Assembly: GCA_041652935.1 (NCBI GenBank)
Contig: JBAZGH010000002.1
Coordinates: forward strand, 18,039-64,194
Source: Patescibacteria group bacterium
Lineage (GTDB): Bacteria > Patescibacteriota > Patescibacteriia > Patescibacteriales > XYC2-FULL-47-12
DNA: 46,156 nucleotides
Direction: 5' to 3'
In this document: in pieces, positions 3 to 34,040 of the stretch
Layout: the number at the start of each line of letters is the position of its first letter
How positions within the stretch are numbered: the first letter of the stretch is position 1
Made by a program: the position numbers and the translations under genes
The notes under the pieces: generated by a model
What the model was told of the DNA's origin: nothing
Database searches by the model: none
The model's input: only the letters and a program-made list of their open reading frames with translations

Positions 3-386
3 TTATTAATTAACCAAGTCGGCGCCATAAAAGTTAATACCCGAGATTTGATTGAATACGCTTTCCGCGATAAGCATGTTATAATTGTATCGCCGACTTC
101 TTTCCACGCTTATTTGCAGACTGTTCTACAGGGTTTGCGCGCCCTTAAAATAGAGGAGAGCGCCAAGGAGATCCGCAAGAATGTTGAGATGCTGCAAAGG
201 CACATATTAAGTTATGAAGAATATCTGAAAAAATTAGGAGGTCATCTAAGCACCACAGTCAGCACTTACAATAATGCCTACAAAGAATTCAAAAAAATAG
301 ATAAAGATGTGGCTCGGGTTACTGACGGCAAATCAGAGGTTGAGCCGTTGATTTTAGATAAACCAAAAATTGAGTCACAAAGTTAA
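3..386 (+). CDS. rmuC: DNA recombination protein RmuC, C-terminal fragment (5' end lies outside the window)
   Basis: The frame is open from the window edge, with no stop between nt 3 and the TTG at 48. The translation VSPTSFHAYLQTVLQGLRALKIEE...YNNAYKEFKKIDKDV resembles the conserved RmuC C-terminal region. Confidence 0.7.
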   Translation, partial: LLINQVGAIKVNTRDLIEYAFRDKHVIIVSPTSFHAYLQTVLQGLRALKIEESAKEIRKNVEMLQRHILSYEEYLKKLGGHLSTTVSTYNNAYKEFKKIDKDVARVTDGKSEVEPLILDKPKIESQS

Positions 387-469
387 AAGTTTAAAAGTTA
401 TAAAGTTTATAAGAAAAAGATTATTTCAAGGCGACTTTATGAACTTTGCAACTTTATAAACTTTTAACT
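381..469. repeat. Intergenic palindromic element, family A (AAAGTT/AACTTT words)
   Basis: The left arm agttaaaagtttaaaagttataaagtttataag (381-413, includes the rmuC stop) pairs imperfectly with ctttatgaactttgcaactttataaacttttaact (435-469). Confidence 0.8.
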
Positions 470-479
470 AAATTTCCCC

Positions 480-1496
480 ATGCTTGTCTCAACTTTCGCC
501 AGTTTGCGCGAAGTAACATTTGATTTAAATCATGAATTAAAGCGTGATTTTATTTCTGATCCGAATTCAAACTCAAATAGCGAGTTGGAGCTTGCTGTTA
601 AAAAAACCTTAGTTTTTTTTAATATTTTTGACTACCCATTAACCGATTGGGAAATTTACAAATACCTTTGGGTAGGTGATTTAAATCGGAAAAGCTTTAA
701 TTACGGAGAGATAAAATACGTTTTAAACAGCGCTCCGGACGGCATTGCGCATCAGGACGGTTTTTATTTTCTGAGCGGCGGGGAGGAGTTAGTTTTATTA
801 AGAAAGGAAAGGCAGATTATATCCCGGAAAAAATACAAGCGCGCTTTACGAGTCATTAAAATTTTAAGCGTATTGCCTTTTGTTAAAATGATAGCCGTCT
901 GCAACACACTGGCCTACGATAACGTCCGCGACGACAGCGACATAGATTTATTCATAGTAACGGCGAAAGATAAAATTTGGACAGCCCGTTTTTATTCTTT
1001 GGCGCTGTTGAAATTATTGCGGCTTCGCCCGGAAAAAGACAATAAGAAAGACAAGTTTTGTTTGAATTTTTTTATTAGCGAAGATAATTTGAATTTGCAA
1101 AAATTAACCATAGAAAATGATATTTATTTTGCCTATTGGCTGAAGCAGCTTCTCCCGGTTTATAACGATGAAATTTTTAAAAAATTAGTTGAAGAAAATA
1201 AAGATATCGGCCAATTAATAAATAATAATTCTCCCGCTGGATTTTTTAACAAGCGCAAGGTAAGGCAGGGCGTAATTATCCAAGGGCTTAAAAGCATGCT
1301 GGAGGTTTTAAATGCCTGGGGATGGATGGAAAAATTATTAAAGCTTATCCAGCTTAAAATTATGCCTCGGAATATGATAGCGAAATCAGAAGAGGGCACG
1401 GGGGTTGTGATTAATGATAAGGTTTTAAAATTTCATGTTGACGATAGGAGGGGAGATATTAGAAATGAATGGGAAAAAGTAACCAGTAACCAGTAA
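480..1496 (+). CDS. Hypothetical protein, possibly nucleotidyltransferase-fold
   Basis: 338-aa ORF. The DSDIDLFIV segment followed by helical LKLLRLRP resembles the minimal nucleotidyltransferase (Pol-beta-like) signature. The 3' end and stop codon lie inside a gtaaccag word repeat. Confidence 0.35.
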   Translation: MLVSTFASLREVTFDLNHELKRDFISDPNSNSNSELELAVKKTLVFFNIFDYPLTDWEIYKYLWVGDLNRKSFNYGEIKYVLNSAPDGIAHQDGFYFLSGGEELVLLRKERQIISRKKYKRALRVIKILSVLPFVKMIAVCNTLAYDNVRDDSDIDLFIVTAKDKIWTARFYSLALLKLLRLRPEKDNKKDKFCLNFFISEDNLNLQKLTIENDIYFAYWLKQLLPVYNDEIFKKLVEENKDIGQLINNNSPAGFFNKRKVRQGVIIQGLKSMLEVLNAWGWMEKLLKLIQLKIMPRNMIAKSEEGTGVVINDKVLKFHVDDRRGDIRNEWEKVTSNQ

Positions 1497-1500
1497 CCAG
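1479..1500. repeat. gtaaccag word triplet (family E half-site) forming the 3' end and stop of the 480-1496 ORF
   Basis: gtaaccagtaaccagtaaccag. The same string recurs at 7755-7776. Confidence 0.8.
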
Positions 1501-1526
1501 TCTTTATTTATTATGTTTTTTATAAA

Positions 1527-2894: not shown

Positions 2895-2910
2895 AAATAT
2901 TAAAAATTGC

Positions 2911-2998
2911 CAATTTTCAATGATCAATTACCAATGATCAATTGGAAATCAAATAATTGAAAATTCATTTGAAATTGTAAATTGGTAATTGAAAATTG
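2911..2998. repeat. Intergenic palindromic element, family B (CCAATT/GGAAATTGG words)
   Basis: caattttcaatgatcaattaccaat (2911-2935) pairs with attggtaattgaaaattg (2981-2998). Confidence 0.7.
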
Positions 2999-3003
2999 AA
3001 AAT

Positions 3004-3861
3004 ATGTTAATCGACCTACAACTTCATTCAGTTAATTCGGACGGCTATCTGGAGCCGGGCGAGGTGGCAAGGTTATGCCAAGAACGCGGAGTAAAAATCG
3101 CCAGCTTAACGGACCACAATACAGTCAGCGGGCAGGAAGAGTTTAAGCGCGCCTGCAAGCAGTATGGAATTAAAGTAATACCGGGCATGGAGCTTTATGT
3201 TACGCTTAAAAATAGGCATATGAACTTGCTTTGGTATAATTTTGATATTGATAATCCGGAGCTGCATAAAATTCTGCGTGAAACCCAAAAAAGGAGAAAA
3301 AGTTATGCCCGCAGGATTTTGGAAAAATTGGCGAAAAAGGGATACACGATTGATGTTAACGCTATTTTAGACAAGCATAACCATTATTTACCCATTAACC
3401 ATATTGTAGACAGCTTTCATGATTTGAATAAGAAAAAAATACAGCAGGAATTCGGCCGCCAGTATGTAACCACTACTGAAATCATCCGCCATTATTTCCG
3501 CAGCTCAGTTAAAGTGCGATTACATGAAAGCTATATTAATATTGAGCGCGTTTTTAAATTGCGGCAGAAAGTCGGCGGGCAGTTAGTTTTATGCCATCCA
3601 TGCAAGTTTAAGTGGGTTGAACGAGATGTTGTAAAAGGATTAGTTGATATGGGTTTGGATGGAATAGAAGTTTTATCTCCGCACCATTCTTGGAACGCTA
3701 TCAGTTACTTGCAAGCTTTAGCCGAACAGTATAAACTCATTATGACCGGCGGCAGCGACTTCCATTTGTTTGAAAAAGAAAAATATTTTAAGATAAAAAG
3801 CTCCTGGGATTATTTTGCGATAGACAGTAAAATGCTTAAAGACATCTCAAAAATTATATGA
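3004..3861 (+). CDS. PHP-domain metal-dependent phosphoesterase
   Basis: MLIDLQLHSVNSDG...ASLTDHNTVSG...GGSDFH are PHP His/Asp motifs. I prefer the ATG at 3004 to the track's TTG at 2989, which lies in an intergenic repeat element. The stop overlaps the next start (ATGA). Confidence 0.8.
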   Translation: MLIDLQLHSVNSDGYLEPGEVARLCQERGVKIASLTDHNTVSGQEEFKRACKQYGIKVIPGMELYVTLKNRHMNLLWYNFDIDNPELHKILRETQKRRKSYARRILEKLAKKGYTIDVNAILDKHNHYLPINHIVDSFHDLNKKKIQQEFGRQYVTTTEIIRHYFRSSVKVRLHESYINIERVFKLRQKVGGQLVLCHPCKFKWVERDVVKGLVDMGLDGIEVLSPHHSWNAISYLQALAEQYKLIMTGGSDFHLFEKEKYFKIKSSWDYFAIDSKMLKDISKII

Positions 3862-5012
3862 AGAAAAAATTAAAAATAGCCATAATATTTCGGCCAGATG
3901 TAAGAATCCAGATACCAACTTTAGGCGGAATGAGCAATTTCGTCTATTTTTTATCCAAAGGATTAAAAGCGCGCGGCCATGACGTTACTGTTTTTGGCGG
4001 AAGAAATTCAAAACTTGCCAGAGGAGTTAAGCTGGAGAAATGCCTTATCAATGAAGACGGAGCGAATATATATGATGCCGGAGAAAATTTTCGTTCAGTT
4101 GTTAAAAAAGGGGCAAACAGTTTGGATGAAGCGATTAATATGTCCTTTGGCGATTTAAGCAAAAGGTTTGATTATAAGATTGAGCATTACTTGAGCGCTT
4201 TTAGCAAGATAAAAGCCGGCAATTTTGACGCAGTCCATATAATAAGCTATGAAATTGTCGGGTTGTATCCGGCGCTTTTCTCCGTTGTGCCGGCGGTTGT
4301 CAGTTTTCACGGCCATCATGATTATTATTCAAAAGAGCAGAAACGCTGGCTGGATTTTGTTAAAGATAATTATAAAAGTTTGAATTGCAGTTTTGTGTCA
4401 GTTTCTAGATTTATTCAGAAAGAATACGTTAAATTTATAAAATCAGAGCTAATTTATAATGCAATCGACATCAAACCGTATAAGCTGCAAAAAAATAAAA
4501 AAGATTACATTGCTTTTCTGGGGCGGATAGACGCTAAAAAGGGGCTGGAGTTTACTATTAAATTCTCTAAAAAATACCAAGTGCCGCTGATTATTGCCGG
4601 CAATATTTCCAATAAATGGTATTTTGAAGATAAAATTAAGCCATATATTGACAGCAAATTGATTAAGTTTATCGGCTTGGTTAATGAAAAGCAAAAAAAT
4701 AAATTATTGGGTGGCGCTAAATGCTTTTTTATGCCGACGCGCTATAAAGAGGCGTTCGGCCGAGTAATAGTTGAAGCGCTGGCCTGTGGAACCCCGGTAA
4801 TCGGATTCAAAAACGGGGCGGTGCCAGAGTTAGTTATCAATAATAAAACCGGATTTGTTATAAAAGAGGATGATATGGGGGGGGCAAAAAAAGCTTTTGA
4901 TAAAATTGAGCAAATAAAGCCGGAGGTCTGCCGGAAATTCGTGGAAGATAATTTTACGATAGAGAGGTTAGCTGGAGAATACGAAGCGCTGTATAGAAAA
5001 ATTTCTAATTAA
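3858..5012 (+). CDS. Glycosyltransferase family 4 (GT-B fold)
   Basis: The C-terminal EAFGRVIVEALACGTPVIG...GAVPELV (EX7E-type region) and the overall length fit GT4/Glycos_transf_1. Confidence 0.85.
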   Translation: MKKKLKIAIIFRPDVRIQIPTLGGMSNFVYFLSKGLKARGHDVTVFGGRNSKLARGVKLEKCLINEDGANIYDAGENFRSVVKKGANSLDEAINMSFGDLSKRFDYKIEHYLSAFSKIKAGNFDAVHIISYEIVGLYPALFSVVPAVVSFHGHHDYYSKEQKRWLDFVKDNYKSLNCSFVSVSRFIQKEYVKFIKSELIYNAIDIKPYKLQKNKKDYIAFLGRIDAKKGLEFTIKFSKKYQVPLIIAGNISNKWYFEDKIKPYIDSKLIKFIGLVNEKQKNKLLGGAKCFFMPTRYKEAFGRVIVEALACGTPVIGFKNGAVPELVINNKTGFVIKEDDMGGAKKAFDKIEQIKPEVCRKFVEDNFTIERLAGEYEALYRKISN

Positions 5013-5016
5013 CCTC

Positions 5017-5158
5017 ATTATTCTAAAAATTATCAATGACCAATTTTCAATAACCATTCAATATCCAAATCTCAATTTCCAATTGTTTATTGGATATTGG
5101 TCATTGATTGGAAATTGGACATTGATAATTGATCATTTATTGGGTCAATTAGAATAAT
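5017..5158. repeat. Intergenic palindromic element, family B
   Basis: About 65-nt imperfect arms: attattctaa...tatcaatgaccaattttcaataaccattcaatatccaa against ttggatattggtcattgattggaaattggacattgata...ttagaataat. Confidence 0.8.
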
Positions 5159-5172
5159 TGAAAATTATAATT

Positions 5173-6084
5173 ATGCTTAGAATAAAGAAAAATAAAAATC
5201 TTACTATCGCCGTCGGCCAGGCCTGGTTTCGGGCCTGGAAAGATTATAACGGGCATTTGAAAAAAATGGGCGTTAGGACTGTGGTGGTGGATTTATGGAA
5301 TCCTGGTTGGGCGCAGCGGCTGGAAAAAATTAAAGGTAAGGTTGACGCCTATCTATGGCACTCAGATACTTGGGAGGAAAATTATCGGCGCATCCACGAC
5401 CGTATTTTTTATATTGCCAATTTTATCAAAAAGCCGGTTTTTCCCGATTTAAATATGTATTATTCCTATAATGATAAAATTAAGCAGTATGAAATATTTA
5501 AGGCGAAGAAGCTGCCGATGATTGAAACTTATATGGCAATTGAAGAGGGGAGGGCGTTGGGATTGGCGGAGGAAATTAAATATCCAATAATCATTAAAGA
5601 CGCTTACAGCGCCGGCGGAGACGGAGTTTATAAAATTGAAAATAAAGCTGAGTTTAAAAAAACAGTTAAGCAAATTTTTTCCCCCTCCGGGTTTGGGAAA
5701 AAAGTCGGCTATGGCGGGATAAAAAATTATTTATACGCGCAAAAATTTATTCCCAATATGAAGCGGGATTTGCGCATTATTACCATTGGAGGCAAATGCG
5801 CCTGCGCTTACTGGCGCGTTGGAACGGAATGGAAGCATAATATCTGCAAAGGCGCTAAGCTTGATTTTAACGGCGTGCCCAAGCGGGCGATTGATTTTTG
5901 TGTTAAAATATCTAAAGAAAATAAATTCCATTGGATGAGCTACGATTTATTTATTTTGCCCAATGGAAAAATAAAGCTGATAGAATGGTCTTGTAATTTT
6001 GGAGTTAAGGGGCCGAGGGAGCAAGGGGTTGATGTCAGGGAGATGCAGATGGAGTATCTAGTAAAATTACTAACTTCTAATTAG
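5173..6084 (+). CDS. ATP-grasp domain protein (RimK-like)
   Basis: YPIIIKDAYSAGGDGVYKIENKAEF is a glycine-rich ATP-grasp loop, followed by a later DLRIITIGG segment. ATG 5173 is preferred over TTG 5158, which lies inside a repeat element. Confidence 0.6.
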   Translation: MLRIKKNKNLTIAVGQAWFRAWKDYNGHLKKMGVRTVVVDLWNPGWAQRLEKIKGKVDAYLWHSDTWEENYRRIHDRIFYIANFIKKPVFPDLNMYYSYNDKIKQYEIFKAKKLPMIETYMAIEEGRALGLAEEIKYPIIIKDAYSAGGDGVYKIENKAEFKKTVKQIFSPSGFGKKVGYGGIKNYLYAQKFIPNMKRDLRIITIGGKCACAYWRVGTEWKHNICKGAKLDFNGVPKRAIDFCVKISKENKFHWMSYDLFILPNGKIKLIEWSCNFGVKGPREQGVDVREMQMEYLVKLLTSN

Positions 6085-6107
6085 TTTAATTTAAATTAAT
6101 CCAATTG

Positions 6108-6268
6108 CACTAATTATTCTAATTAACCTATTAAATTACCAATTACCAATGCCCAATTTCCAATCAATGACCAATATTCAATAACCAATTGGAAATTGAT
6201 TTGGATATTGAATGGTCATTGGAAATTGGGCATTGAAAATTTTTGGGATAATTTGAGCAATTAGAAAT
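6108..6268. repeat. Intergenic palindromic element, family B
   Basis: caatgcccaatttccaatcaatgaccaatattcaataaccaatt pairs with aattgatttggatattgaatggtcattggaaattgggcattg. It shares a near-identical word string of about 38 nt with the element at 5017-5158. Confidence 0.8.
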
Positions 6269-6270
6269 TT

Positions 6271-7755
6271 ATGAAAATAGTATTTTTATCTGCCGAATGC
6301 GCGCCGTTTATTAAAGCGGGCGGGTTAGGGGATGTTGTCGGATCTTTACCGCCGGCGCTGGCAAAATTAAAAATTAAGCCGGTTATTTTTTTGCCGTTAA
6401 ATAAAGATGTTTCTGTTAAAAAATGGAAACTGCGAAAATTGCGTAAATTTAAAATCAGCTATGATGAAAAGAGCGAACAAGTTGAAATTTTTAAAACATT
6501 GCTTCCAAACTCAAAGATAGAAGTTTATTTTTTATCCAATCAAAAATATTTCAATAAAGAAGATGCTTATTCGGGAGGACTAAAAAAGTTTTTATTTTAC
6601 AGTTTAGCCAGCCTGGAGGCGATGAAAGTTTTATCCGCCCAAGGCGGAGTAAACAAAATAAAACCGGATATTATCCATTGCCATGACCATCAAACTGGCA
6701 TGACCTTTAATATTCTAAAATCTATTTACAAGAATGATAATTTTTTTAAACAGATAAAAACTGTTTTCACTATCCATAATTTAAATTATCAAGGCAAGAG
6801 AGACCCGGTTATTTTGGATAAAATTGACCATGATATTGAGAAATTAGCTTCCGTGGCTAATGATATTAAAGACGGCGATATAAATTTTATGGTGCAGGGG
6901 ATATTAAGCTCTGATGCAGTAACTACTGTCAGCCCGACTTATGCCAAAGAAATTTTAAAGCCTGAGCTTGGAGTCGGCCTGGATAAAATTTTAATAAAAA
7001 GAAAAAAGGATTTGAGGGGAATTATAAATGGAATTGATATGGATATGTTTAATCCGGTTACTGATAAAAACTTAAGGTATAATTATAACGCGCAAAATTT
7101 GGAAGGCAACACGTCCAAGCTACGCTGGGCGGGCAAGGCAAAAAATAAGGCGTGGCTACAGAAAAAAGTTGGGTTGCCAATTGATGCCAGTAAGCCATTG
7201 GTTGGTTTTATTTCGCGGTTAGTATGGCAGAAAGGAATTGATTTAATTACAGACGAGATGGTGGAGAATTTGGATTGCCAATTTATCGTTTTGGGAACCG
7301 GAGAAGATCGCTATCATAAGCATTTAAAACAATTAGCTAAAAAATATCCAGATAAATTTTCCGCCCAAATTACATTCAGCGTGGAAACAGCCAGCCAGAT
7401 TTACGCCGCCAGCGATATGTTTTTAATGCCTTCCCGCTATGAGCCCTGCGGGTTGGGGCAGATGATTGCGATGCGTTATGGCAGCGTGCCAATCGTGCGG
7501 GCGACTGGAGGATTGCGCGACACAGTCAGAGATTTTAGATTTTCGATTTCAGATTTTAGATTGGCAAACGGATTTGTTTTTGATAAATTCAGCAGTTTGG
7601 AATTGGAAAAAATTTTGCAACGAGCAATTAATATCTATCAAAATAATCCAAAAGTTTGGCGGAAACTGCAACTGAACGGCATGAAAGAAGATTTTTCATG
7701 GAAGAAACCGGCTAGAGAATATGTGAAATTGTATAAATCAGTAATAAGTAAATAG
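6271..7755 (+). CDS. glgA: Glycogen/starch synthase
   Basis: N-terminal MKIVFLSAECAPFIKAGGLGDVVGSLP (KxGGL motif) and C-terminal PSRYEPCGLGQMIAMRYGSVPIVRATGGLRDTV. Confidence 0.9.
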   Translation: MKIVFLSAECAPFIKAGGLGDVVGSLPPALAKLKIKPVIFLPLNKDVSVKKWKLRKLRKFKISYDEKSEQVEIFKTLLPNSKIEVYFLSNQKYFNKEDAYSGGLKKFLFYSLASLEAMKVLSAQGGVNKIKPDIIHCHDHQTGMTFNILKSIYKNDNFFKQIKTVFTIHNLNYQGKRDPVILDKIDHDIEKLASVANDIKDGDINFMVQGILSSDAVTTVSPTYAKEILKPELGVGLDKILIKRKKDLRGIINGIDMDMFNPVTDKNLRYNYNAQNLEGNTSKLRWAGKAKNKAWLQKKVGLPIDASKPLVGFISRLVWQKGIDLITDEMVENLDCQFIVLGTGEDRYHKHLKQLAKKYPDKFSAQITFSVETASQIYAASDMFLMPSRYEPCGLGQMIAMRYGSVPIVRATGGLRDTVRDFRFSISDFRLANGFVFDKFSSLELEKILQRAINIYQNNPKVWRKLQLNGMKEDFSWKKPAREYVKLYKSVISK

Positions 7756-7845
7756 TAGCCAGTAACCAGTAACCAGAATTCAAAAAACACCCCGTGGAGG
7801 CGTTTTCTATCCACTAGTTACTAATTGCTGATTACGAGTTACTAT
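7755..7845. repeat. Family E element between convergent glgA and galT
   Basis: gtagccagtaaccagtaaccag (7755-7776), then a weak central hairpin, then the inverted partner ctagttactaattgctgattacgagttact (7814-7843). Confidence 0.65.
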
Positions 7846-7847
7846 TA

Positions 7848-8762: not shown

Positions 8763-8770
8763 TTTTATAA

Positions 8771-8880
8771 GACAGATAAGCGCGGATTAGAGACAGATAA
8801 GCACGGAGCGCGGATATGCGGTGATATTATATTATCGCATATCTGTGCTCCGTAAAAATCCGTAGTAAATCTGTGTTAAT
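8771..8880. repeat. Intergenic palindromic element, family D (ACGGAGCRCRGATAT words)
   Basis: Near-continuous palindrome acggagcgcggatatgcggtgatat (8803-8827) / atattatcgcatatctgtgctccgt (8829-8853). The outer words are gataagc / attaacacagat. Confidence 0.8.
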
Positions 8881-8993: not shown

Positions 8994-9008
8994 GTATTGA
9001 CATAAGCG

Positions 9009-25048: not shown

Positions 25049-26962
25049 ATGCTGAAAAACAAACTAATAACCCGGATATTTATTGTTGCCTTTTGTATTT
25101 TTTTTGGCTGGGTTAACTATGCCCAGGCAGATATTTCTTTAACTATTTTTAATACAGAAGAGCATCCCATGGATAAATTAAGCCAGATGCAGGTTTTAGA
25201 AAAAATTATGCCGGAGGGGACAGAAATTGAATACTTATTAGATTATAAAGATTATAACAGACAAAAGATGTTACGGGAGACTGGAGCAAGATTTTTTCCT
25301 TTAATTGTTTACGGACAAGGGATAGAAAATGACAAAGATTTCACCAATCTTATTAAAAGCGGCTTGGCGGAAAAACAGGGCAGCCGTTATGTTGTCCCCG
25401 CCCAAGTCATAGAAGATATTTTTGGCGCCTGGTCCTATTTTTATCAGCGCCAGCCAATAGAGAACAGATTGGACTTATTTGTTGCCAGCGCAGACAGCCT
25501 CAGCGTGGGGGTGGAAAAAAGAATAATTAATTATCTGCTCCAAAATAAGGTAGATGATATTGATTTAAAAACTCATTATTTAGTTCAGTTTCCAGAAAAT
25601 GAATCTAAGGATAACAGTCAAATGCCGTCCGCTAGGTATGGCCAGCCGGAGCTGGAAGAAAACATCCGCCAGCTTTATATTCAGAAAAACTATCCAGACA
25701 TTTTTTATAATTATCTGCTTTCTGTCAACAAAGATAATTTTTTAGAACCGGAGGAAAGGATTGGAAAATTTGATATTGATTATAGCGGAGAACAAAAGGA
25801 AAAATTCAAAGAAGAGGCCTTAAAAATTCTGCGCCAAGACAGCCAATTGGCTGATGAGTTGGGTATAAAAGCGTCTCCGACAATTCTTTGGCAAAATCAG
25901 TATTTAATAAAGGGTTATCTGCCATTTTTAAATAAATTCCCGCCTTTCGACAAAGAAGAAAAAATTATTAAACTATCGGCGGATGCCATAAGCGGAGATA
26001 ATGCGCTAGAATTTTTTTATTCCCGCGTAGACAATGAATCCACGGAAATAAGAAACGGATTAATAGGCGGGCTTAAAATAGCTTATAGCAAAGAGTTGAA
26101 AATAAAAGAATATGACGTGGTCAGCAACCCGGATTCTTTGGAGAGGATAATAGAATTAGGCGAAGCCGCCGGACTATTGGCCGAGCCCAAAACCCCGGTC
26201 GTTTATTTTGCCAATAATTTAATTTTAGGCAGTAAGGCGATTGATGAGAATCTGGGCAATTTAGTTATTGCAGAATTAGGCGAGCCGGAAGCAGGGAAGA
26301 TTGTCAGGAGCATGGAATATCGAGCAGCCATTAAATGGATATCGGGAGATTTTTTAAAGGTTATAAAAAGCTGGAGCTGGTTGCTGCTGTTATTTTTATT
26401 TTGTTATCTCACATTTCTTAAAAAACCAGCTAAGAGAATTTTTTTGTTTAATTTGATATTTATCGTCGGAGTTTTATTGGGGCATGGTTTATTTTCCCTT
26501 ATTCCGGCTGGAATAGAGTGGCGCTTTATGGCTGTCGGCAGTAAATTGGCCGGCATATTTGCTTTCTTGCTATTTATTTTTTCATTCTGCTTAGGTGTTT
26601 TTTATCTTTATAGTTATTATATAGGCGAAGAGTCAGATTTAAAGCAAAATGCTTTTATCAACTTTTGTCGGAATTTATTAATAAAGGTGAAGCAAGTTAC
26701 TGATGAACAAATTTATATGCTGGCGGCAATAACTGGTTTTTTGAGCATTATTTTTGATTTGTCGCGACAAAGCTATTTAAGCAGCGTTTCTTTTTTGAAT
26801 ATAATATCAATATTATTAATTTTTGTTTTAGTTTTTTTCGGTATTATTTTTTGGGCCGTTAAGATTAAAAGCTTTTTTAACCAGCATCAAAATTTACAGC
26901 AATTTTTATTATCCTCTTTCTTTTTTGCCATGGCAGTTTTTGTCTGGAGTCTACTTATATGA
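25049..26962 (+). CDS. Membrane protein: signal peptide, large extracytoplasmic region with thioredoxin/DsbA-like segments lacking CXXC, and a C-terminal multi-TM domain
   Basis: N-terminal hydrophobic signal ending in ...YAQA. ELGIKASPTILWQNQYLIKGY resembles the DsbA 'G(V/I)xGTPTxxxNG' strand-turn. About 6 TM helices lie in the last 200 aa. The ATG directly abuts the previous stop. Confidence 0.35.
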   Translation: MLKNKLITRIFIVAFCIFFGWVNYAQADISLTIFNTEEHPMDKLSQMQVLEKIMPEGTEIEYLLDYKDYNRQKMLRETGARFFPLIVYGQGIENDKDFTNLIKSGLAEKQGSRYVVPAQVIEDIFGAWSYFYQRQPIENRLDLFVASADSLSVGVEKRIINYLLQNKVDDIDLKTHYLVQFPENESKDNSQMPSARYGQPELEENIRQLYIQKNYPDIFYNYLLSVNKDNFLEPEERIGKFDIDYSGEQKEKFKEEALKILRQDSQLADELGIKASPTILWQNQYLIKGYLPFLNKFPPFDKEEKIIKLSADAISGDNALEFFYSRVDNESTEIRNGLIGGLKIAYSKELKIKEYDVVSNPDSLERIIELGEAAGLLAEPKTPVVYFANNLILGSKAIDENLGNLVIAELGEPEAGKIVRSMEYRAAIKWISGDFLKVIKSWSWLLLLFLFCYLTFLKKPAKRIFLFNLIFIVGVLLGHGLFSLIPAGIEWRFMAVGSKLAGIFAFLLFIFSFCLGVFYLYSYYIGEESDLKQNAFINFCRNLLIKVKQVTDEQIYMLAAITGFLSIIFDLSRQSYLSSVSFLNIISILLIFVLVFFGIIFWAVKIKSFFNQHQNLQQFLLSSFFFAMAVFVWSLLI

Positions 26963-28503
26963 AATTTAATTTTAATATAAAATCTCTCTATTCAAAATTC
27001 AAACATTTATTGACTGTCAATAATATTTTTATTGCGCTAGCTTTGGCGGCAGTTATTTTTTTGATTGCTTGGACCGAGTTTAGCTATCCCTACATCCACG
27101 GGGCAGACCCCTACACCCACACCAGAATGGCTTATATAATCAGGGACCAGGGAATGCCGAAAGAACTGCACTGGGCCAGATATTCTACTTTGCGGGAAAA
27201 TTATTCAGACCGGGATTTTTTTCTCCATTATGCGATTATTCCTTTCACCTATCTCTCAAATAATTTTTATTTCACGGGGAAAATAGCGGTAGTTATTTTT
27301 AACGCTATAACCTTATTTGTTTTGGTTTGGGTAGCTGGAGTTTTTGTCAGAAAAAGATGGATTCCTTGGCTGATTTTAGGCTTATTTTTTTCCACTCCCT
27401 ATTTTGGTTCCATTCATCTGCTGCGGCCGCATATTTTTTCTCTTGCTTTCGGGCTTTGGGGACTGCGCGCCATAATTAAGCGCAATTTTTTTAGTATTTT
27501 TCTGGCGGCATTTTTCTTTTCCCTTTTTCATATCACCAGCGTGTTAATGTTGGTAATGGCTGTTTTTTATGAAATAATCAGAAAAATTAACGGAGCAAAA
27601 TTTTCTTTTAAACCCATAGTGGTTGTTTTTTCCGGTTTATTTCTAGCCTTGTTTTTCTACCCTAATTTTTATTCTAATTTTATGAATCTGTATGTTCAAA
27701 TATATAGTCAGATTCTTTATGCTGTTCTCGGAGCTGTTTCTCAATATGGAGGAATAAAATTTCCCATTGGCGGGGAAATGAATCCGACGAATACGCGCGC
27801 TTTTTTATTCGATTTCCCCTTTGTTATTATCGGCATAGCTCTGCTAATTTTAATTTTAACCTTACGCAATATTAAAATTTCTCCTAAAACTCAGTTTTTA
27901 TCCTGGTTCGCTTTGCTGTTTATTGTTTTGTCTTTTTTTAGTTATCGGTATGCTGTCCAGGCTTATCCATATATTATTCTGTTTGTTTTTGCCTTTATTT
28001 CTGAGTTAGATGAGCAGTTTAATGTTTGGAAAAAATTCAGGAAGCAAAAAATTCTCTGGCTGGCAATAATTCCGGTTTTAATAGTAGTTATATATTTAGG
28101 CAAAAATGTTGTTATCAATGTCCAACGGCAAATAGAGTCTGAAAAAGTGAATACCCAACATATTGAATCGGGGGAGTGGATGAGAGATAACCTGCAGCCA
28201 GGAGAGCTGGTTTATAATTCCTCGTGGTCAGACGGCACCCAGCTTTTCGGCATAAATCCAAATAATGACTATTTAGATTTGCTAAGTTCCGAATATATGT
28301 ATTTGTACGACCCGGACTTATACAAGCTCAGAATGGCCACCAACGACGGCCAGGGCAATGTTTATTATAATATAAAATATATCTTTAAAGCCAGATATAT
28401 TTATACCCACACCGGAACCGGCTTGGTTGGAGCGATACAAAATGATTCGCGCTTTAAGGTTCTGTACAGCAAAAACGGAGCAGTTGTTTTTGAAGTATTA
28501 TGA
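26959..28503 (+). CDS. Polytopic GT-C-fold-like membrane glycosyltransferase (ArnT/PMT/STT3-like)
   Basis: About 11-13 TM helices and a soluble C-terminal domain of about 130 aa. The first loop after TM1 carries the acidic motif HGADPYTHTRM, reminiscent of GT-C first-loop Asp motifs. The start overlaps the upstream stop by 4 nt. Confidence 0.45.
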   Translation: MKFNFNIKSLYSKFKHLLTVNNIFIALALAAVIFLIAWTEFSYPYIHGADPYTHTRMAYIIRDQGMPKELHWARYSTLRENYSDRDFFLHYAIIPFTYLSNNFYFTGKIAVVIFNAITLFVLVWVAGVFVRKRWIPWLILGLFFSTPYFGSIHLLRPHIFSLAFGLWGLRAIIKRNFFSIFLAAFFFSLFHITSVLMLVMAVFYEIIRKINGAKFSFKPIVVVFSGLFLALFFYPNFYSNFMNLYVQIYSQILYAVLGAVSQYGGIKFPIGGEMNPTNTRAFLFDFPFVIIGIALLILILTLRNIKISPKTQFLSWFALLFIVLSFFSYRYAVQAYPYIILFVFAFISELDEQFNVWKKFRKQKILWLAIIPVLIVVIYLGKNVVINVQRQIESEKVNTQHIESGEWMRDNLQPGELVYNSSWSDGTQLFGINPNNDYLDLLSSEYMYLYDPDLYKLRMATNDGQGNVYYNIKYIFKARYIYTHTGTGLVGAIQNDSRFKVLYSKNGAVVFEVL

Positions 28504-28560
28504 AGTTCGTGGTAAAATTAATGTAAATTTAATATACTACAAACATAAACAACGATTCCC

Positions 28561-30036
28561 ATGTTTTTAAAATTTCTGAATAACTATAAAGAAAGGGTCG
28601 GACAAATACTCAGTAAGCCGTTAGGGGGCATTATAGTCGGCGTATTTATGATTTTAACCATATTTACAGTTTTGGCTTTTACCGAACCGCTAGCCGCACC
28701 TTCAATCACTGAGCCGGAAACAGCCGCCTCTACCGGCAATATAGAAACATTACTAGGAACTAGCACCAGCGCCACCACAGGTGTTACCAGTGTTTTCGAT
28801 TATTTGCGGCAAATTTACACCAATATAGGCCAAACGCCCGCTTCTACGCCAGGCTTTGAAACGGATGCCGGCCGGATTAAGGATTTAGTCGGAGATTCCA
28901 GCCCCTCTACCGCCGACGGCAAGACAATTTTCCGCTATCTTAAAGCGATTAATGATAATTTAGATTTTCCTGACGCGGCTAATGTCAGGGATTCAGATAC
29001 AGTAAAAGGAGCAGCGGGGAGCATTGCAGATTGTGCATCCCCCGGCTCTCAGAGCTGTTATGCTACCGGCTCTTATTATGCCGGCACCGCTTGCGCCTCT
29101 GAAGGCTCTCAGAGCTGTTATGCTACCGGCTCTTATTATGCCGGCACAACTAAAACAATCAATAACGCCACGGTTTCCCAATCAGCCGGCTACTATGCAG
29201 CTTTTAACTTAACTACGGCTGAGTCTGATTTAACAGCCGGCAATATAGTTACGGGGATAAGCATCTTCGGCGTGGCTGGAACAGCCACTTGCCAGATAGA
29301 CGCTGACAGCGATAGCGCGAATTTATATTCCATATCTGTTTTTGATTGCAATGAGAGCAATGTTAATGTAAAAAATGCCACCGACGGCACTTGCGACGGA
29401 GATAGTGATAATTTTTTGGATTATACCGCCCGCGCGGCTAACTTGGGAAATTGGCTAGGCTATGATTTAGATGATGCTAGCGCTGATGCCACCGCCAATA
29501 AATCAGGCACAATGATTTATAACACAGACGTAAATCATGACGGTCTCTTCGGCGGCCGTAGCGGGATAGACAGCTTTTGCGTTACTTATAAGCCGGCCAG
29601 CCTAGCTTGCAACAATATCCATGCCTTTGCTTCCAATAACGCGACCGATCAAATAGTAAATATGCCCGCTGTTTATGGGTACCAGAGCAACCGGCCGTTG
29701 TATTGGGTTTCAAGGACCGGTTTATATTTAACTAAATTCGCTAATAATTGGGCAGATGCTTTGGATAATAGTATTATGGTAAACGCTCGAGATGCCGGAG
29801 CAGCTGGGTATCCTTACGACTACAATAATGGTTTTTGGACCGGTTCACTTTATGGCGGTGTTATATATAATTATGGTGGTTCGTTTGCTTGCAGCGGTTG
29901 GAGTACAAACAATGGCGCATATCCCAACTTCACCTATATTGGCACTGGTACCAACGTAGATGATCAATGGCTGATTGGACTTGGACTTACGGCGTGTAAT
30001 AGGGGAGTTAATGTATGGTGTGCCTGCAATCCTTAA
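28561..30036 (+). CDS. Secreted or membrane-anchored Ser/Thr/Gly-rich protein with a duplicated Cys-containing 20-aa unit and a Cys-rich C-terminal domain
   Basis: One N-terminal TM/signal anchor (GGIIVGVFMILTIFTVLAF), a T/S-rich linker, the tandem GSQSCYATGSYYAGT units, and a C-terminus ending ...CSGWS...ACNRGVNVWCAC. Confidence 0.5.
   Translation: MFLKFLNNYKERVGQILSKPLGGIIVGVFMILTIFTVLAFTEPLAAPSITEPETAASTGNIETLLGTSTSATTGVTSVFDYLRQIYTNIGQTPASTPGFETDAGRIKDLVGDSSPSTADGKTIFRYLKAINDNLDFPDAANVRDSDTVKGAAGSIADCASPGSQSCYATGSYYAGTACASEGSQSCYATGSYYAGTTKTINNATVSQSAGYYAAFNLTTAESDLTAGNIVTGISIFGVAGTATCQIDADSDSANLYSISVFDCNESNVNVKNATDGTCDGDSDNFLDYTARAANLGNWLGYDLDDASADATANKSGTMIYNTDVNHDGLFGGRSGIDSFCVTYKPASLACNNIHAFASNNATDQIVNMPAVYGYQSNRPLYWVSRTGLYLTKFANNWADALDNSIMVNARDAGAAGYPYDYNNGFWTGSLYGGVIYNYGGSFACSGWSTNNGAYPNFTYIGTGTNVDDQWLIGLGLTACNRGVNVWCACNP
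29044..29147 (+). repeat. In-frame tandem duplication, period 60 bp
   Basis: The 44-bp string ggctctcagagctgttatgctaccggctcttattatgccggcac is identical at 29044-29087 and 29104-29147. Confidence 0.95.
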
Positions 30037-30043
30037 AATATTT

Positions 30044-30988
30044 ATGCCTGTGAGAAAGAAAATACAAATAATATTATTTATTTCTATTTTAGTTTTTACC
30101 AACGTTTTTTTTATTAAACAAAATCCAGTTCAGGCCGCTTACAGCGGCAATTCTTCCGGCTATGCCTGGAGCGAGCAGGGAGGATGGATTAGCTTTGAAA
30201 CTGCCGATGATTATGGAGCGCAGGTAGCAGACACTTATTTAGACGGTTATATCTGGGGCGAGAAAATCGGCTATATTTCCTTAAAGCGCGACAGCGATTC
30301 GCCGGATTATGGAATTACTAATGCTATGGCCGGCGGAGAAGGCAAACTAAGCGGACAGGTTTGGAGCGAACAGGCCGGCTATATTAAATTTGCCGCAGAC
30401 GGTTCCGACTATTCCAATGATTCCGCGGCTAATTATGGAGTTAAAATTGACAGCAGCGGGGTTTTTAGCGGTTATGCCTGGGGTGAAAAAATCGGCTGGA
30501 TTAGCTTCAGCGGCAGCTGCGATACTGGCGCGGCTGATGCCTGCGACGGCGGAACTTACGGAGTAACAACCACTTGGCGGCCGAACCTTCCTCCCGACGC
30601 TCCGGTTTTGGAATCCCCGGCTAACGAATCCGCGATTAATGATAATACCCCCCTCTTATCCGCTTCTTATTCCGACTCCGATGACGGAGATACGGGCAAA
30701 ACTTATTACCGCATTGCCGCCAGCGCGGAAAATTGCCTGGCCGGCACGATTATTATTTCCGGCGCTTCTTCAGAAACTCTTACCAATAACGCTACTACTA
30801 TTTGGACTCCGCCTTCCTCGATCGGCACCAGCGGAACTTATTACTGGTGCGCGCAGAACAACGACGGCCAGGATACGTCCGACTGGACTTCGATGGGCAG
30901 TTTTATTTTAAACTATGATGAGTCTATCTCGGGGGTAGACCTTGGCGGTGGGGGAATGGAAATAGAGGGGATAGAATTCTATGAATAA
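30044..30988 (+). CDS. Secreted repeat protein (four G-x-x-W-[SG]-E-x-x-G-[WY]-I-x-[FL] units plus an Ig/FN3-like C-terminal domain)
   Basis: Signal peptide ending ...PVQA. Repeats are GYAWSEQGGWISF, GYIWGEKIGYISL, GQVWSEQAGYIKF and GYAWGEKIGWISF. ATG 30044 is preferred because the track start 29975 overlaps the previous gene. Confidence 0.55.
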   Translation: MPVRKKIQIILFISILVFTNVFFIKQNPVQAAYSGNSSGYAWSEQGGWISFETADDYGAQVADTYLDGYIWGEKIGYISLKRDSDSPDYGITNAMAGGEGKLSGQVWSEQAGYIKFAADGSDYSNDSAANYGVKIDSSGVFSGYAWGEKIGWISFSGSCDTGAADACDGGTYGVTTTWRPNLPPDAPVLESPANESAINDNTPLLSASYSDSDDGDTGKTYYRIAASAENCLAGTIIISGASSETLTNNATTIWTPPSSIGTSGTYYWCAQNNDGQDTSDWTSMGSFILNYDESISGVDLGGGGMEIEGIEFYE

Positions 30989-30995
30989 ATTAATC

Positions 30996-31052
30996 CCACG
31001 AATCTACAAATACACTACAAATATACAAATATTCGTATTTGTAGATTTGTGG
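30996..31052. repeat. Family F hairpin
   Basis: ccacgaatctacaaatac (30996-31013) pairs with gtatttgtagatttgtgg (31035-31052): 18 positions with 1 mismatch. Confidence 0.8.
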
Positions 31053-31065
31053 AGAACGATGAACC

Positions 31066-31785
31066 ATGGATGATTATCTAAGAAAAATTAAAAAAGTTTG
31101 GCAGGAATTTATAAAAAAACCATGGGCTTCTCATGTTTTGTGGTCTATTTTTTTTCTGATTGTCGTTTTATTATTAAATTTCTTTCACCAAAGAGAATTA
31201 AAACAAATAGATATCAATGATTTTAATCGCGGCCGATTAATGACTGAACAAGGCCGGCAATATGTTGACGACAGAAGCTTAACGGCTATAAGTGAAGAAA
31301 CTATAGAAAAAGAACAATCGGTCTGGGAAGAAATAAACGGCTCTCCCTTTAAAAAGTACAGCGAAATAAATTATCAAAGCAACGGCCAAGTTATTAATTT
31401 ATCATCAGGGATGGCAAAAAAAGACAATTTAACCGGTTTAATCTGGAGCAGCCGGTCTTCCGAACCTCTGTCTGATAATTTTACTTTAAACGAGGACGGA
31501 AATATCAGCGGCGGCGAAGCGGTTGACTTTTGCCAGGCTTTGAATAAAATAAAGTATGCTGGTTATAACAACTGGAATTTGCCGACCCAGAAGCAGTTAA
31601 TGCAGGCCTATGTTGACGGCGCTTCTGTAAGTTTGGCGGAGATAGCGACCTATTTTTGGTCCGGCACGGAATTTTTAGGCGATTCCAGCCGGGCTTGGCG
31701 GGTAAATTTAAGAGCCGGAGATGTGGCTAGCAGCCCAAAAAATAACAGCAGCACGATGTACGCGGTTTGTGTAGCTGGGGATTAA
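31066..31785 (+). CDS. DUF1566 / Lcl C-terminal domain protein (C-type-lectin-like fold), membrane anchored
   Basis: One N-terminal TM helix. DNLTGLIWS...FCQAL...GYNNWNLPTQKQL...YFWSGTE...AWRVNLRAGDV...YAVCV matches the DUF1566 pattern as I recall it. Confidence 0.65.
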   Translation: MDDYLRKIKKVWQEFIKKPWASHVLWSIFFLIVVLLLNFFHQRELKQIDINDFNRGRLMTEQGRQYVDDRSLTAISEETIEKEQSVWEEINGSPFKKYSEINYQSNGQVINLSSGMAKKDNLTGLIWSSRSSEPLSDNFTLNEDGNISGGEAVDFCQALNKIKYAGYNNWNLPTQKQLMQAYVDGASVSLAEIATYFWSGTEFLGDSSRAWRVNLRAGDVASSPKNNSSTMYAVCVAGD

Positions 31786-31823
31786 AGAAGCTGTTAAATA
31801 TTTTAAAGATAAGTTTAATAAAT

Positions 31824-31972
31824 AAAATTTTTAATTTTATAATTTTTAATTTTTAAATAATACTTAATTTTTAAATCCTAAACACGACGACAAACGACTA
31901 TGAAAAAACCGTGTTTTTAAAAATTAAGATTTAAAATTTATTTAAAAATTACAAAATTAAAAATTAAAAATT
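31824..31972. repeat. Intergenic palindromic element, family C, with a central aaacacg...cgtgttt hairpin
   Basis: The arms are near-identical to those of the 14795-14927 element. The central stem is 31880-31886 / 31910-31916. Confidence 0.85.
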
Positions 31973-32537: not shown

Positions 32538-32559
32538 TATTCTGTAATTTTATTTTCTT

Positions 32560-32668
32560 TACGGATTAACACTGATTTATCACGGATTTTTACGGAGCAC
32601 GGATATTAGCTAATGCTTCTTCGGCGAGTATCCGTGCTCCGTATTTATCCGTGTTAATCTATGTTAAT
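32560..32668. repeat. Intergenic palindromic element, family D (opposite orientation to the 8771-8880 copy)
   Basis: Perfect 15-bp stem tacggagcacggata (32591-32605) / tatccgtgctccgta (32629-32643). The flanking attaacac.gattta..acggattttt string is shared with the reverse complement of the 8771-8880 element. Confidence 0.85.
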
Positions 32669-32672
32669 TAAT

Positions 32673-33554
32673 ATGAAAAAAACAATCATAATAATTTTAC
32701 TATTTTTAATAGCCTCTCCTGCTTTAGCATACTACAACCCCGGCGCTCCAACCGGGTTTGTTAATGACTACGCTAATATCATTGAGGACGGCTTGCAACA
32801 GGAGATGGAAAATAAATTAACGCAATTTGAGCAGGAATCCAGTAATGAAATTTCAGTAGTAACCATTCAGAATTTGGATGGCGATTATATTGAGAATTTT
32901 GCCGAGAAACTATTTGCTGAATGGGGGATTGGCAAAGAAGATAAAAACAACGGCGTTTTAGTGCTTGTGGCGCTGGAAGATCGGGAAATGCGGATTGAAG
33001 TCGGTTATGGGCTGGAAGGAGCGCTGACTGATGCGCAAAGTAACTGGATTATCAATAACGAGATGAAACCGGCTTTTAAAGAAGAGCGGTATGGAGACGG
33101 CATTAACGAAGCGGTTGATAAGATAATCAGCGCGACTAAAGGAGAATATATCTCATCAGAACTTGGGAGTCCGATTACCAACGGGGAGTCAGACTCCCTT
33201 GATTGGAGTTTTATATTCTGGATTGTAATATTCGGTTTTTTGTGGCTGGCGGCAATTTTAGGCCGGAGCAAGTCCTGGTGGGCGGGCGGAGTGATTGGCG
33301 GAGTGGCCGGAATTATTATTGGCTTGATCAAAGGATTCCTTTGGCTGGGGCTGGGCGCGATTGCAATTTTAATTCCTTTCGGCCTGTTATTTGATTTTAT
33401 TGTTTCTAAAAAATATCATGCGGCTAAATCAGCCGGACATATTGTGCCCTGGTGGATTGGCGGGGGACGGGGCGGCGGGAGATTCGGCGGCGGAGGTTTT
33501 GGCGGTTTTGGAGGGGGAATGTCCGGCGGTGGGGGAAGTTCAGGAAGTTGGTAA
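32673..33554 (+). CDS. TPM-domain protein (YgcG-like) with TM helices and a Gly-rich tail
   Basis: FVNDYANII...ISVVTIQNLDG...NNGVLVLVALEDREMRIEVGYGLEG, and a C-terminal GGGRFGGGGFGGFGGG tail. It lies directly downstream of lemA, which is a commonly conserved pair. Confidence 0.85.
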   Translation: MKKTIIIILLFLIASPALAYYNPGAPTGFVNDYANIIEDGLQQEMENKLTQFEQESSNEISVVTIQNLDGDYIENFAEKLFAEWGIGKEDKNNGVLVLVALEDREMRIEVGYGLEGALTDAQSNWIINNEMKPAFKEERYGDGINEAVDKIISATKGEYISSELGSPITNGESDSLDWSFIFWIVIFGFLWLAAILGRSKSWWAGGVIGGVAGIIIGLIKGFLWLGLGAIAILIPFGLLFDFIVSKKYHAAKSAGHIVPWWIGGGRGGGRFGGGGFGGFGGGMSGGGGSSGSW

Positions 33555-33557
33555 GAT

Positions 33558-34040
33558 GAATAATTTCCAATTTTTAATTTTTAAACAATTTTTAATTACC
33601 AAATGTTTTAAACACGACGCCGTGTTTAGAAAATAACAAGTAGCGTATGCAGTACGACTTAGAAGAAAGAACTAGAAAATTTAGTAAAATATAATATCAA
33701 CATTATCCAAAATTAAAGAAAATAGTATTAATAAAAGTATAATAAATCAAATAATTAGATCAGCTACTAGTGTCGGTGCTAACTGCATGGAAGCTAATCA
33801 AGCTAGTTCAAAAAGAGATTTTAAGAATAAAATATTTATTTGTAGAAAAGAAATACAAGAAACTAAATATTAGATAGAAATGCTTGCACAGACAAATTTA
33901 GAAATAAAAACAGAATTAAGGATTTTATGGAAAGAGGCACATGAATTAACATTAATTTTTAATAAGATATCATCAAGTTTAAGAAATTAAAGAATTAGTT
34001 AATTGTTTAAAAATTAGAAATTAGAAATTGAAAATTAATA
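33558..34040. repeat. Family C-like inverted-repeat arms bracketing a hairpin and the four-helix-bundle pseudogene
   Basis: The left arm aataatttccaatttttaatttttaaacaatt (from 33559) matches the reverse complement of the right arm, ttaattttcaatttctaatttctaatttttaaacaatt (arm ending about 34040). The perfect hairpin taaacacg-acgc-cgtgttta at 33609-33628 re-uses the stem seen at 31880-31916. Confidence 0.65.
33647..33990 (+). pseudogene. Decayed four-helix-bundle protein gene (23S rRNA intervening-sequence protein / Avd-like family)
   Basis: The manual translation gives MQYDLEERTRKFSKI then a frameshift, then ...INKSIINQIIRSATSVGANCMEANQASSKRDFKNKIFICRKEIQETKY*IEMLAQ...ELTLIFNKISSSLRN. The span is 344 nt, not a multiple of 3. 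An in-frame TAG (33871-33873) sits where the family's conserved Trp (YW) is expected. Confidence 0.7.

Follow-up and report, generated by a model that had tools for sequence, protein, structure and literature searches.

What are the long imperfect palindromes, built of short AT-rich words, that fill the spacers between the housekeeping genes of a patescibacterial genome? The question arises from a stretch of 46,156 nucleotides of a Patescibacteria group bacterium (contig JBAZGH010000002.1), here called the window. An earlier note on this DNA had sorted the palindromes into six recurring vocabularies (A-F), had likened them to REP (repetitive extragenic palindromic) sequences, to MITEs (miniature transposable elements with inverted repeats) and to RNase III substrates doubling as insulators or terminators, and had held that they belong to no feature class that can be named. 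We consider it probable that they belong, as gene-less (non-autonomous, MITE-like) versions, to a kind of cassette in which two inverted arrays of 7-9-nt words surround a small gene of the PF05635 family. PF05635 (23S_rRNA_IVP) comprises the S23p or four-helix-bundle proteins, which are homologues of the Avd protein of diversity-generating retroelements (DGRs).

The palindromes are readily recovered from the window. A repeat search found inverted repeats with arms that are 73-91% complementary (Table 1), and the folding energy of each spacer was compared with that of 200 dinucleotide-preserving shuffles. For 12 spacers outside a glycan island at 16-31 kb the folding z score lay between -3.6 and -10.9, with none of the 200 shuffles as stable in any of the 12 cases, which bears out the earlier note on the existence of the palindromes. 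The F1 hairpin is weaker than the others, one of its 200 shuffles being as stable. The elements had been described as lacking from the island, and the three island spacers that were folded (16249-16308, 19035-19143 and 22680-22845) are indeed unremarkable, with z scores of -2.8, -2.1 and -0.8. In the native parts of the window the spacers add up to 2410 nt, and elements take up 71% of this length.

Self-identity at a lag of 7 or 8 nt amounts to 0.44-0.60 in eight spacers, and the words of the palindromes are therefore tandem units of about 7-8 nt; palindrome arms differ from one another by indels of whole words. Pairwise similarity (z ≥ 4) sorts the elements into the same six families, nearly all links falling within a family and the cross-family links being those of B1 with both halves of C4. 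B2 matches B3 in opposite orientation with 89% identity across 138 nt, the identity of C2 with C3 is 90% across 136 nt, D1 is an inverted copy of D2 and F1 resembles F2 with a z score of 8.1. The pair of segments said to be nearly identical (14879-14927 and 31917-31965) does differ at 1 of 49 positions. In family E, E2 is a palindrome, whereas E1 is a tandem run at an open reading frame (ORF) end with no palindrome. Overlap with stop codons is real for rmuC and the 480-1496 ORF, the glgA stop (7753-7755) being abutted, and overlap with spurious ORF starts is real for the TTG codons at 2989, 5158, 12438 and 31971.

Table 1. Word elements of the window, with the inverted repeats recovered by repeat search and the folded intervals (folding z score in brackets)
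Element	Position	Strand	Inverted repeat	Folded interval (z)	Description
A1	381-470	+	388-469	381-479 (-5.7)	AAAGTT-word palindrome over the rmuC stop codon; right arm matches that of the L089 cassette at the orthologous site (~80% identity, by eye)
E1	1479-1500	+			AACCAGT x3 tandem within the 3' end of ORF 480-1496
B1	2900-3006	+	2906-3003	2895-3005 (-4.4)	CCAATT/GGAAATTGG-word palindrome; right arm makes the spurious TTG start at 2989; absent in L081
B2	5018-5157	+	5028-5130	5013-5157 (-5.9)	B-family palindrome between GT4 and ATP-grasp genes, which overlap in sister L081
B3	6100-6268	+	6141-6241	6085-6270 (-6.8)	B-family palindrome upstream of glgA
E2	7750-7850	+		7750-7850 (-3.6)	AGTAACC-word palindrome between convergent glgA and galT; terminator-like core 7781-7809; absent in L081; other words in L085
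D1	8766-8885	-		8763-8885 (-10.5)	palindrome of ACGGAGC/GACAGAT words, flanked by the divergent genes galT and groES; missing from L081 and L085
C1	9378-9490	+	9380-9486	9375-9512 (-5.4)	AATTTTT-word palindrome between groES and groEL
A2	11160-11330	+	11162-11328	11155-11332 (-10.2)	AAAGTT-word arms 11162-11193 and 11295-11326 around the terminator of groEL (11200-11236) and the promoter (11245-11273) of the gene that follows
F1	12385-12455	+		12380-12460 (-3.0)	weak ACAAAT-word hairpin
C2	14793-14934	+	14796-14934	14790-14937 (-7.0)	C-family palindrome; terminator-like GC hairpin core 14855-14875
F2	30989-31065	+		30989-31065 (-7.3)	hairpin of ACAAAT/CACGAAT words at the island's right-hand end
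C3	31820-31985	+	31822-31984	31786-31985 (-5.1)	C-family palindrome upstream of LemA; left arm and internal box AAACACGACG common to PF05635 cassettes
D2	32555-32668	+	32577-32657	32538-32668 (-10.9)	D-family palindrome between LemA and TPM; site empty in L081
C4	33555-34043	+			decaying cassette: left arm ~33558-33605, box/hairpin 33606-33627, right arm ~33985-34040
C4 pseudogene	33647-33960				PF05635, E 1.9e-12; one frameshift, one in-frame TAG

Within the window, the connection to PF05635 is seen in C4, where a C-type arm pair is split by a PF05635 pseudogene. Intact relatives of this pseudogene, 88-89% identical to it, are found at two loci (L173 and L174) with quite different neighbour genes, the same arms and the same internal box, and alignment shows that the gene-less C3 shares arm and box with both of these cassettes. 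A second line of evidence comes from six relatives of the host, whose orthologous region was obtained via exact-protein look-ups of GroEL homologues. In one of them (L089) the spacer between rmuC and the following gene of unknown function holds an intact PF05635 gene (23S_rRNA_IVP, 2559-2909, E 2e-35), whose product has a relative of known structure in Xanthomonas (PDB entry 2gsc); this S23p structure is described as a pentamer of four-helix bundles (PMC4990558). The L089 gene is flanked by inverted arms of AAAGTC words, and its right arm aligns with the right arm of A1, the two lying at equal positions relative to the downstream start codon. We take A1 to be the gene-less version of this cassette at the orthologous site. 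A further intact PF05635 gene in L089, with GGATATT/AGATATT arms, lies between the LemA and TPM genes, i.e. at the site of D2. These alignments make a strong case for a direct link of families A and C to PF05635 cassettes. The window thus has a single copy with a gene, the decaying C4, whereas about a dozen others have kept only their arms, in some cases around a terminator hairpin.

The arrangement is not peculiar to this group. Metagenomes were scanned with the PF05635 alignment, giving 80 loci with 68 testable genes, and the 160 nt upstream of each gene were aligned with the reverse complement of the 160 nt downstream, with z ≥ 4 as threshold. Inverted flank repeats were present at 46 of the 68 genes (median z 8.0). 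The same flanks reached the threshold in direct orientation at 10 of 68, and inverted flank repeats were seen at none of 41 control ORFs from the same loci. The arms, of median length 36 nt, are tandem words at a spacing of 7, 8 or 9 nt, mostly (A/T)AAAGT(C/T), which is the vocabulary of window family A. Protein identity rises with arm 5-mer similarity (Spearman 0.74, a value reached in none of 500 permutations). Arms diverge in step with their gene, which fits inheritance as one unit. This unit occurs in many unrelated gene neighbourhoods, a neighbouring gene family being common to only 21 of 2628 locus pairs, and it sits nearly always right behind a co-oriented gene (51 of 52 loci), i.e. in transcribed DNA.

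On the plasmids of PLSDB, PF05635 homologues are mostly cyanobacterial. Sixteen regions were fetched, and 13 of them have arrays of the same words inverted around a gene annotated as "four helix bundle / S23 ribosomal" (in several strains of Nostoc and in Anabaena, Trichormus, Scytonema, Calothrix, Geminocystis, Stanieria, Picosynechococcus, Riemerella and Azospirillum); four of these loci, in Nostoc, Trichormus and Scytonema, have GGAGTCA words, are interrelated and do not count as independent. Of the other three regions, two carry direct arrays to either side of the gene, and the third carries an array on a single side. In Azospirillum the interrupted gene codes for 23S rRNA (500.8 bits with the Rfam LSU model); inverted heptamer-like arms enclose the PF05635 homologue, and the insertion is therefore a classical intervening sequence (IVS) of the same design. 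Rfam matches of microRNA type at locus L200 were set aside, as they merely reflect the hairpin. Across 50 kb of a Nostoc punctiforme plasmid there are six heptamer arrays, three of them at its only PF05635 gene and two forming a gene-less inverted pair.

Some details of these loci may be added. In Nostoc punctiforme pNPUN01 (L201, 46626-46821) a spacer holds a gene-less inverted pair of arrays of GGCAGGA words, a vocabulary that recurs in the arms of a PF05635 gene on a Stanieria plasmid (L198). On three cyanobacterial plasmids (L187, L188 and L197) array-flanked four-helix-bundle genes are inserted in CRISPR-cas operons, between cas10 and cmr3 and between cas6 and cas4. Long direct heptamer arrays of up to ~280 nt, in many vocabularies including GTTGAAA/GTTAAAA, adjoin glgA-region genes in Ignavibacteria and others (L013, L024, L039, L052, L011 and L014). 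No PF05635 gene was found in 80 GlgA-anchored loci of other phyla, and the direct arrays of the Ignavibacteria therefore remain unlinked to the family.

How stable are the palindromes over time? The comparison with sister genomes that the earlier note had proposed reveals presence/absence polymorphism. In the relative L081, whose GroEL is 91% identical, the gene order is the same from rmuC to TPM, and at the window sites of A1, B1, B2, B3, E2, D1, C1, F1 and D2 the spacers measure 1-40 nt or the genes overlap. Single sites are found in several states. The groES|groEL spacer is empty in L081, carries the C1 word palindrome in the window and carries an unrelated GC-rich palindrome in L085 and L087, whilst the spacer between rmuC and the unknown gene is empty in L081, filled by A words in the window, by a gene along with A-like words in L089 and by a different vocabulary in L001. 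At the A2 site L085 has the same design and L081 has the terminator and promoter without A-word arms. Palindromes are gained, lost or replaced between close relatives and do not represent a conserved regulatory architecture. This polymorphism, the near-identical distant copies and the gene-carrying counterparts all accord with the MITE-like character proposed by the note.

These data bear on the possibility that the elements are regulatory structures selected by the host, i.e. intrinsic terminators of extended form, stabilisers of mRNA 3' ends or RNase III processing sites that separate cistrons, kept for their benefit to expression. Such structures would be strictly intergenic, as the elements are, and the arms of C3 are conserved far above synonymous sites across three genomes; heptamer repeats, moreover, influence recF and recO expression in Nostoc (bioRxiv 10.1101/2022.06.06.494920). 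Terminator-like hairpins, which the note had described as frequent, stand at the centre of E2, A2 and C2, so that only 3 of 13 elements have such a core. Most cores lack a T-tract terminator and the word arms themselves are no terminators. The syntenic sister L081 lacks the elements at nine sites, one and the same site holds different palindromes in different relatives, D1 lies between divergent genes and A2 encloses a promoter. There is no excess of G-U among the sense-strand arm mismatches (G-T versus A-C, 36 versus 48 in 41 cassettes and 12 versus 13 in the window), and no part of the window matches an Rfam 15 family at gathering score. Selection for a regulatory role thus seems an unlikely origin, and insulation or termination, the second role that the note had given them, is not supported as the cause of their existence.

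Some features of the relatives and of individual insertions may be recorded here. GC-rich palindrome families (GTCATTTCGAG...; CCTCACCC...GGGAGAGGG; GTCATTGCGAGC...) occupy the same spacers in relatives (L091 2993-3150, 17188-17320 and 17881-18015; L085 2640-2760; L087 3275-3465; L089 6290-6388), and two of those in L091 lie at aaRS|LemA and LemA|TPM (aaRS, aminoacyl-tRNA synthetase), the window sites of C3 and D2. At 18891-19440 of L091 a PDDEXK_3 gene lies inside a word palindrome, with the left arm duplicated on both sides of the gene; at 19028-19384 of L089 GC-rich repeats surround a DUF559 endonuclease-like gene. F2-like words (by eye) are present at a non-orthologous site, galT|groES, in L091. 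In the window, B2 and B3 flank the ATP-grasp (RimK-like) gene in opposite orientation, like the ends of a composite element, and L081 has this gene without them. The GT4 (glycosyltransferase family 4) and ATP-grasp genes overlap by 13 nt in L081; B2 lies between them in the window, where the overlap region is apparently present on both sides (4985-5012 and 5158-5185) and the C-terminus of GT4 is altered relative to L081 by the insertion. The unknown 338-aa gene enters tandem heptamers at its 3' end (AACCAGT x3 in the window versus AAATTAT/AAATTGT x4 in L081, about 2840-2870), and the C-terminus of the protein is therefore encoded by repeat DNA.

A further account, which we regard as improbable, sees the arrays as a by-product of mutation, arising in place by replication slippage and made palindromic by template switching, with no mobility and with PF05635 genes merely inserting preferentially. 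Whole-word indels between arms, differing vocabularies at orthologous sites and the failure to find target duplications are all in keeping with this, as are the abundance of long non-palindromic heptamer arrays in Ignavibacteria loci with no PF05635 gene nearby and the L091 palindrome with its internal PDDEXK_3 gene and duplicated arm. Slippage in place does not predict near-identical copies at a distance (1 difference in 49 nt, or 89-90% identity over ~137 nt), nor the same arms and internal box in unrelated contexts of different genomes. The agreement of arm vocabulary with PF05635 phylogeny, and the complete lack of such flanks at the 41 control ORFs, likewise argue against it.

The window also encodes a candidate mobilising enzyme, and the elements could in principle be of the REP/REPIN type, mobilised in trans by a single-copy Y1 transposase (36099-36743), the hairpins being REP doublets moved as single-stranded DNA. 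The gene has a Pfam Y1_Tnp match (E 5.7e-8) and, by eye, an HUH-like motif, NHYHLLV; it is single-copy and IS200-like, and L081 retains it in roughly the same neighbourhood. Like REP doublets, the elements are extragenic hairpins, polymorphic in their presence and free of target duplications. The protein matches the NCBIfam model of REP-associated tyrosine transposases (RAYTs; NF047646) weakly, with 18.2 and 27.5 bits, far under the 80-bit cut-off. REPs are expected adjacent to their RAYT gene (PMC3116915), and none of vocabularies A-F is present in the flanks of the Y1 gene, so that the REP-like label of the note, in its strict RAYT/REPIN sense, fails at the defining test of proximity. A single transposase would also have to serve six or more unrelated, AT-rich vocabularies, the elements are 90-170 nt of tandem words as against GC-rich REPs of 20-40 nt, and the sister L081 has an intact Y1 gene yet lacks most of the palindromes. 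We consider mobilisation by this enzyme very unlikely. The Y1 flanks (35322-37123) do contain seven copies of a near-palindromic 10-mer, CTATCCGATA, four upstream and three downstream; the motif has 10 matches in the whole window, a number reached in none of 100 shuffles, and is absent around the L081 copy of the gene.

If the palindromes are gene-less PF05635 cassettes, how might they be tolerated and how might they spread? By analogy with the rRNA IVS literature, transcription of the host operon would allow the arms to pair into a stem of 30-60 bp, which RNase III would cut. RNase III excision of the IVS stem has been shown experimentally, and in Coxiella heptamers lie within the stem (PMC4990558). 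The insertion would therefore be removed or neutralised at the RNA level, and so be tolerated in rRNA or between cistrons. The note's comparison with RNase III substrates fits to this extent, the same architecture being found in a real 23S rRNA intervening sequence, a type of insertion that RNase III cuts (PMC4990558). Terminator or insulator effects would be by-products, and arms would lengthen and shorten through slippage of whole words. No transposase is encoded in cis in the cassettes; our preferred guess is that they spread when arrays with words in common recombine or undergo gene conversion, possibly aided by a word-binding encoded protein.

A number of findings weigh against the cassette interpretation, or against parts of it. 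The link to PF05635 is uneven across families: for B it is suggestive, through words shared with L175/L176 and with the second L089 cassette, for E it amounts to a single by-eye word resemblance (L135), and for D and F no link to PF05635 cassettes was found. A homology of family D to the Azospirillum IVS arms or to the Coxiella GACAGAT words was marginal (z 2.4, 7 of 200) and is not claimed. Comparison of filled with empty sites gave no clean target-site duplication at S1, S3, S5 and S6 and no defined termini, and transposition is therefore not demonstrated; at S4 there is a possible duplication of the overlap region, of about 28 nt. The RNA step has its own difficulties. Pairing is not visibly under selection because G-U pairs are not in excess and the arm mismatches are mostly of transversion type. 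The A2 arms flank both a terminator and a promoter, and would therefore rarely be on one RNA, and the opposite orientations of the gene-less B2 and B3 show that both orientations occur. C3 presents a different problem. It is found upstream of LemA in the window, L081 and L089, and its arms show few differences between the window and L081 (by eye in the alignment), where the flanking genes agree at 39-53% of their third codon positions. Near-identical arms beside saturated synonymous sites suggest either a sequence-level function or recent exchange. Finally, growth by slippage in situ, or insertion of genes into pre-existing palindromes, could account for part of the pattern.

It seems that the complementarity of the arms comes from the inverted layout of sequence-specific words rather than from selection for pairing. 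This origin of the pairing, together with the extreme conservation of the C3 arms, suggests a factor that reads the words, for which the encoded Avd-like protein is the obvious candidate. A broader reading, which we put forward only tentatively, would see many heptamer arrays of cyanobacteria, Bacteroidetes, Beggiatoaceae, Ignavibacteria and the candidate phyla radiation (CPR), at least those in inverted pairs, as footprints of one system. Pentameric Avd-like PF05635 proteins would read their cognate words in nucleic acid that is single-stranded or folded into a hairpin, each subunit taking up roughly one word; units of arm, gene and arm would be selfish cassettes without transposase that spread between matching arrays and are removed from transcripts by RNase III; the 23S rRNA IVS would be a special case and the DGR Avd a domesticated relative.

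The remaining features of the window concern its host and gene order. GlgA is 68-75% identical to proteins from metagenome-assembled genomes of Candidatus Falkowbacteria and GroEL is 87% identical to named Falkowbacteria proteins; sites of HIP1 (highly iterated palindrome 1) are lacking. Because GlgA and GroEL point to Falkowbacteria and HIP1 sites are missing, the host is assigned to the CPR/Patescibacteria, specifically to Candidatus Falkowbacteria, and a cyanobacterial origin is ruled out. An exact-protein look-up with the product of the window's AI-2E gene returned no record. Reading mostly on the + strand, the window runs through rmuC, the unknown gene, Wzy-like, PHP, GT4, ATP-grasp, glgA, galT (-) and groES-groEL, followed by an AI-2E transporter, a TPR protein, a class II aaRS and the glycan island, and to the right of the island Lcl_C, LemA, TPM, an M16 peptidase, the Y1 transposase-like gene and a giant gene. 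The island (about 16255-31794) is missing from L081, L089 and L091, in which LemA directly follows the aaRS gene. Its edges (16205-16254 and 31775-31826) are formed by an imperfect direct repeat of ~50 nt from the 3' end of the aaRS gene; its two copies are identical over a core of 17 nt, AATATTTTAAAGATAA, and the repeat looks like an integration-site duplication. Upstream of groES (8964-9030) a promoter-like TTGACA-18-TAATAT is followed by the inverted repeat TTAGCACTC-N9-AAGTGCTAA, which we take to be a near-consensus operator for HrcA of the CIRCE (controlling inverted repeat of chaperone expression) type; it is kept in L081, L085, L087, L089 and L091.

Where do the elements stand among known repeats? 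With MITEs they have in common that they are short and non-coding, with inverted ends, dispersed copies, presence/absence polymorphism and derivation from gene-carrying elements. They differ in having neither target-site duplications nor terminal inverted repeats of fixed sequence, and in a parent without a recognisable transposase. The likeness to REP/REPIN-RAYT systems consists in extragenic hairpin doublets, the lack of target duplication and a single-copy Y1 transposase gene in the genome; the differences are those given above, namely that no family copy lies beside the Y1 gene, that the vocabularies are many and AT-rich and that the sister has Y1 and few elements.

Tandem heptamer repeats of the STRR (short tandemly repeated repetitive) type were reportedly described in cyanobacteria by Mazel et al. 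in 1990, and Elhai et al. are said to have reported in 2008 that heptamers are hosts of small dispersed repeats in Nostoc. Like the window elements, such repeats are intergenic, have a 7-nt unit and come in many vocabularies per genome. TAACTGA repeats are found in Beggiatoaceae, cyanobacteria and Bacteroidetes, close relatives having shorter, repeat-free spacers (PMC4679880). Reported heptamer repeats are mainly direct arrays, whereas those of the window are paired in inverted orientation around a core, in a CPR host. The protein partner of the Nostoc repeats has been described as "yet to be identified" (bioRxiv 10.1101/2022.06.06.494920), and the association described here offers a concrete candidate, the protein encoded between the arrays. 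Neither that study nor PMC4679880 connects heptamer arrays with PF05635 genes, and full-text literature searches, some aimed at the gene family, returned nothing that links the two generally, or that describes cassettes between protein-coding genes or in CPR bacteria. What is already known is the existence of intergenic heptamer repeats, and of rRNA IVSs with an S23p ORF, inverted ends and a few heptamers (PMC4679880, PMC4990558, bioRxiv 10.1101/2022.06.06.494920). That no feature class could be named for the elements was thus too strong a statement, given that their words are tandem heptamer repeats (PMC4679880) and that palindrome plus cargo is the design of the 23S rRNA IVS.

Cyanobacteria, Bacteroidota and candidate-phylum bacteria abound in heptamer arrays as well as in "four helix bundle / S23 ribosomal" genes. 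In the tiny genomes of the CPR, repeat elements of recent gain can make up ~70% of the spacer DNA of a housekeeping region. Such gains affect gene calling (through false TTG/GTG starts and altered C-termini), assembly breaks and ideas on streamlining.

A further comparison is with the 23S rRNA IVS of Salmonella, Leptospira, Coxiella and the alphaproteobacteria. Like the elements described here, it has terminal inverted repeats that form a long stem, either empty or with a PF05635 ORF inside, it sits in transcribed DNA, it is sporadically distributed, its ORF is often decaying, and its 5' part can contain heptamer repeats (GACAGAT in Coxiella; PMC4990558). CPR rRNA genes hold both PF05635-bearing and short ORF-less insertions (PMC11270868). 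The window elements, unlike the IVS, lie between protein-coding genes and are mostly gene-less, and their arms are long word arrays with many vocabularies in one genome. All of the window copies lie between protein-coding genes and are therefore IVS-like rather than strict IVSs. Seen in this way, rRNA intervening sequences would be recast as one niche of a broader class of cassettes that also colonises the spacers of operons.

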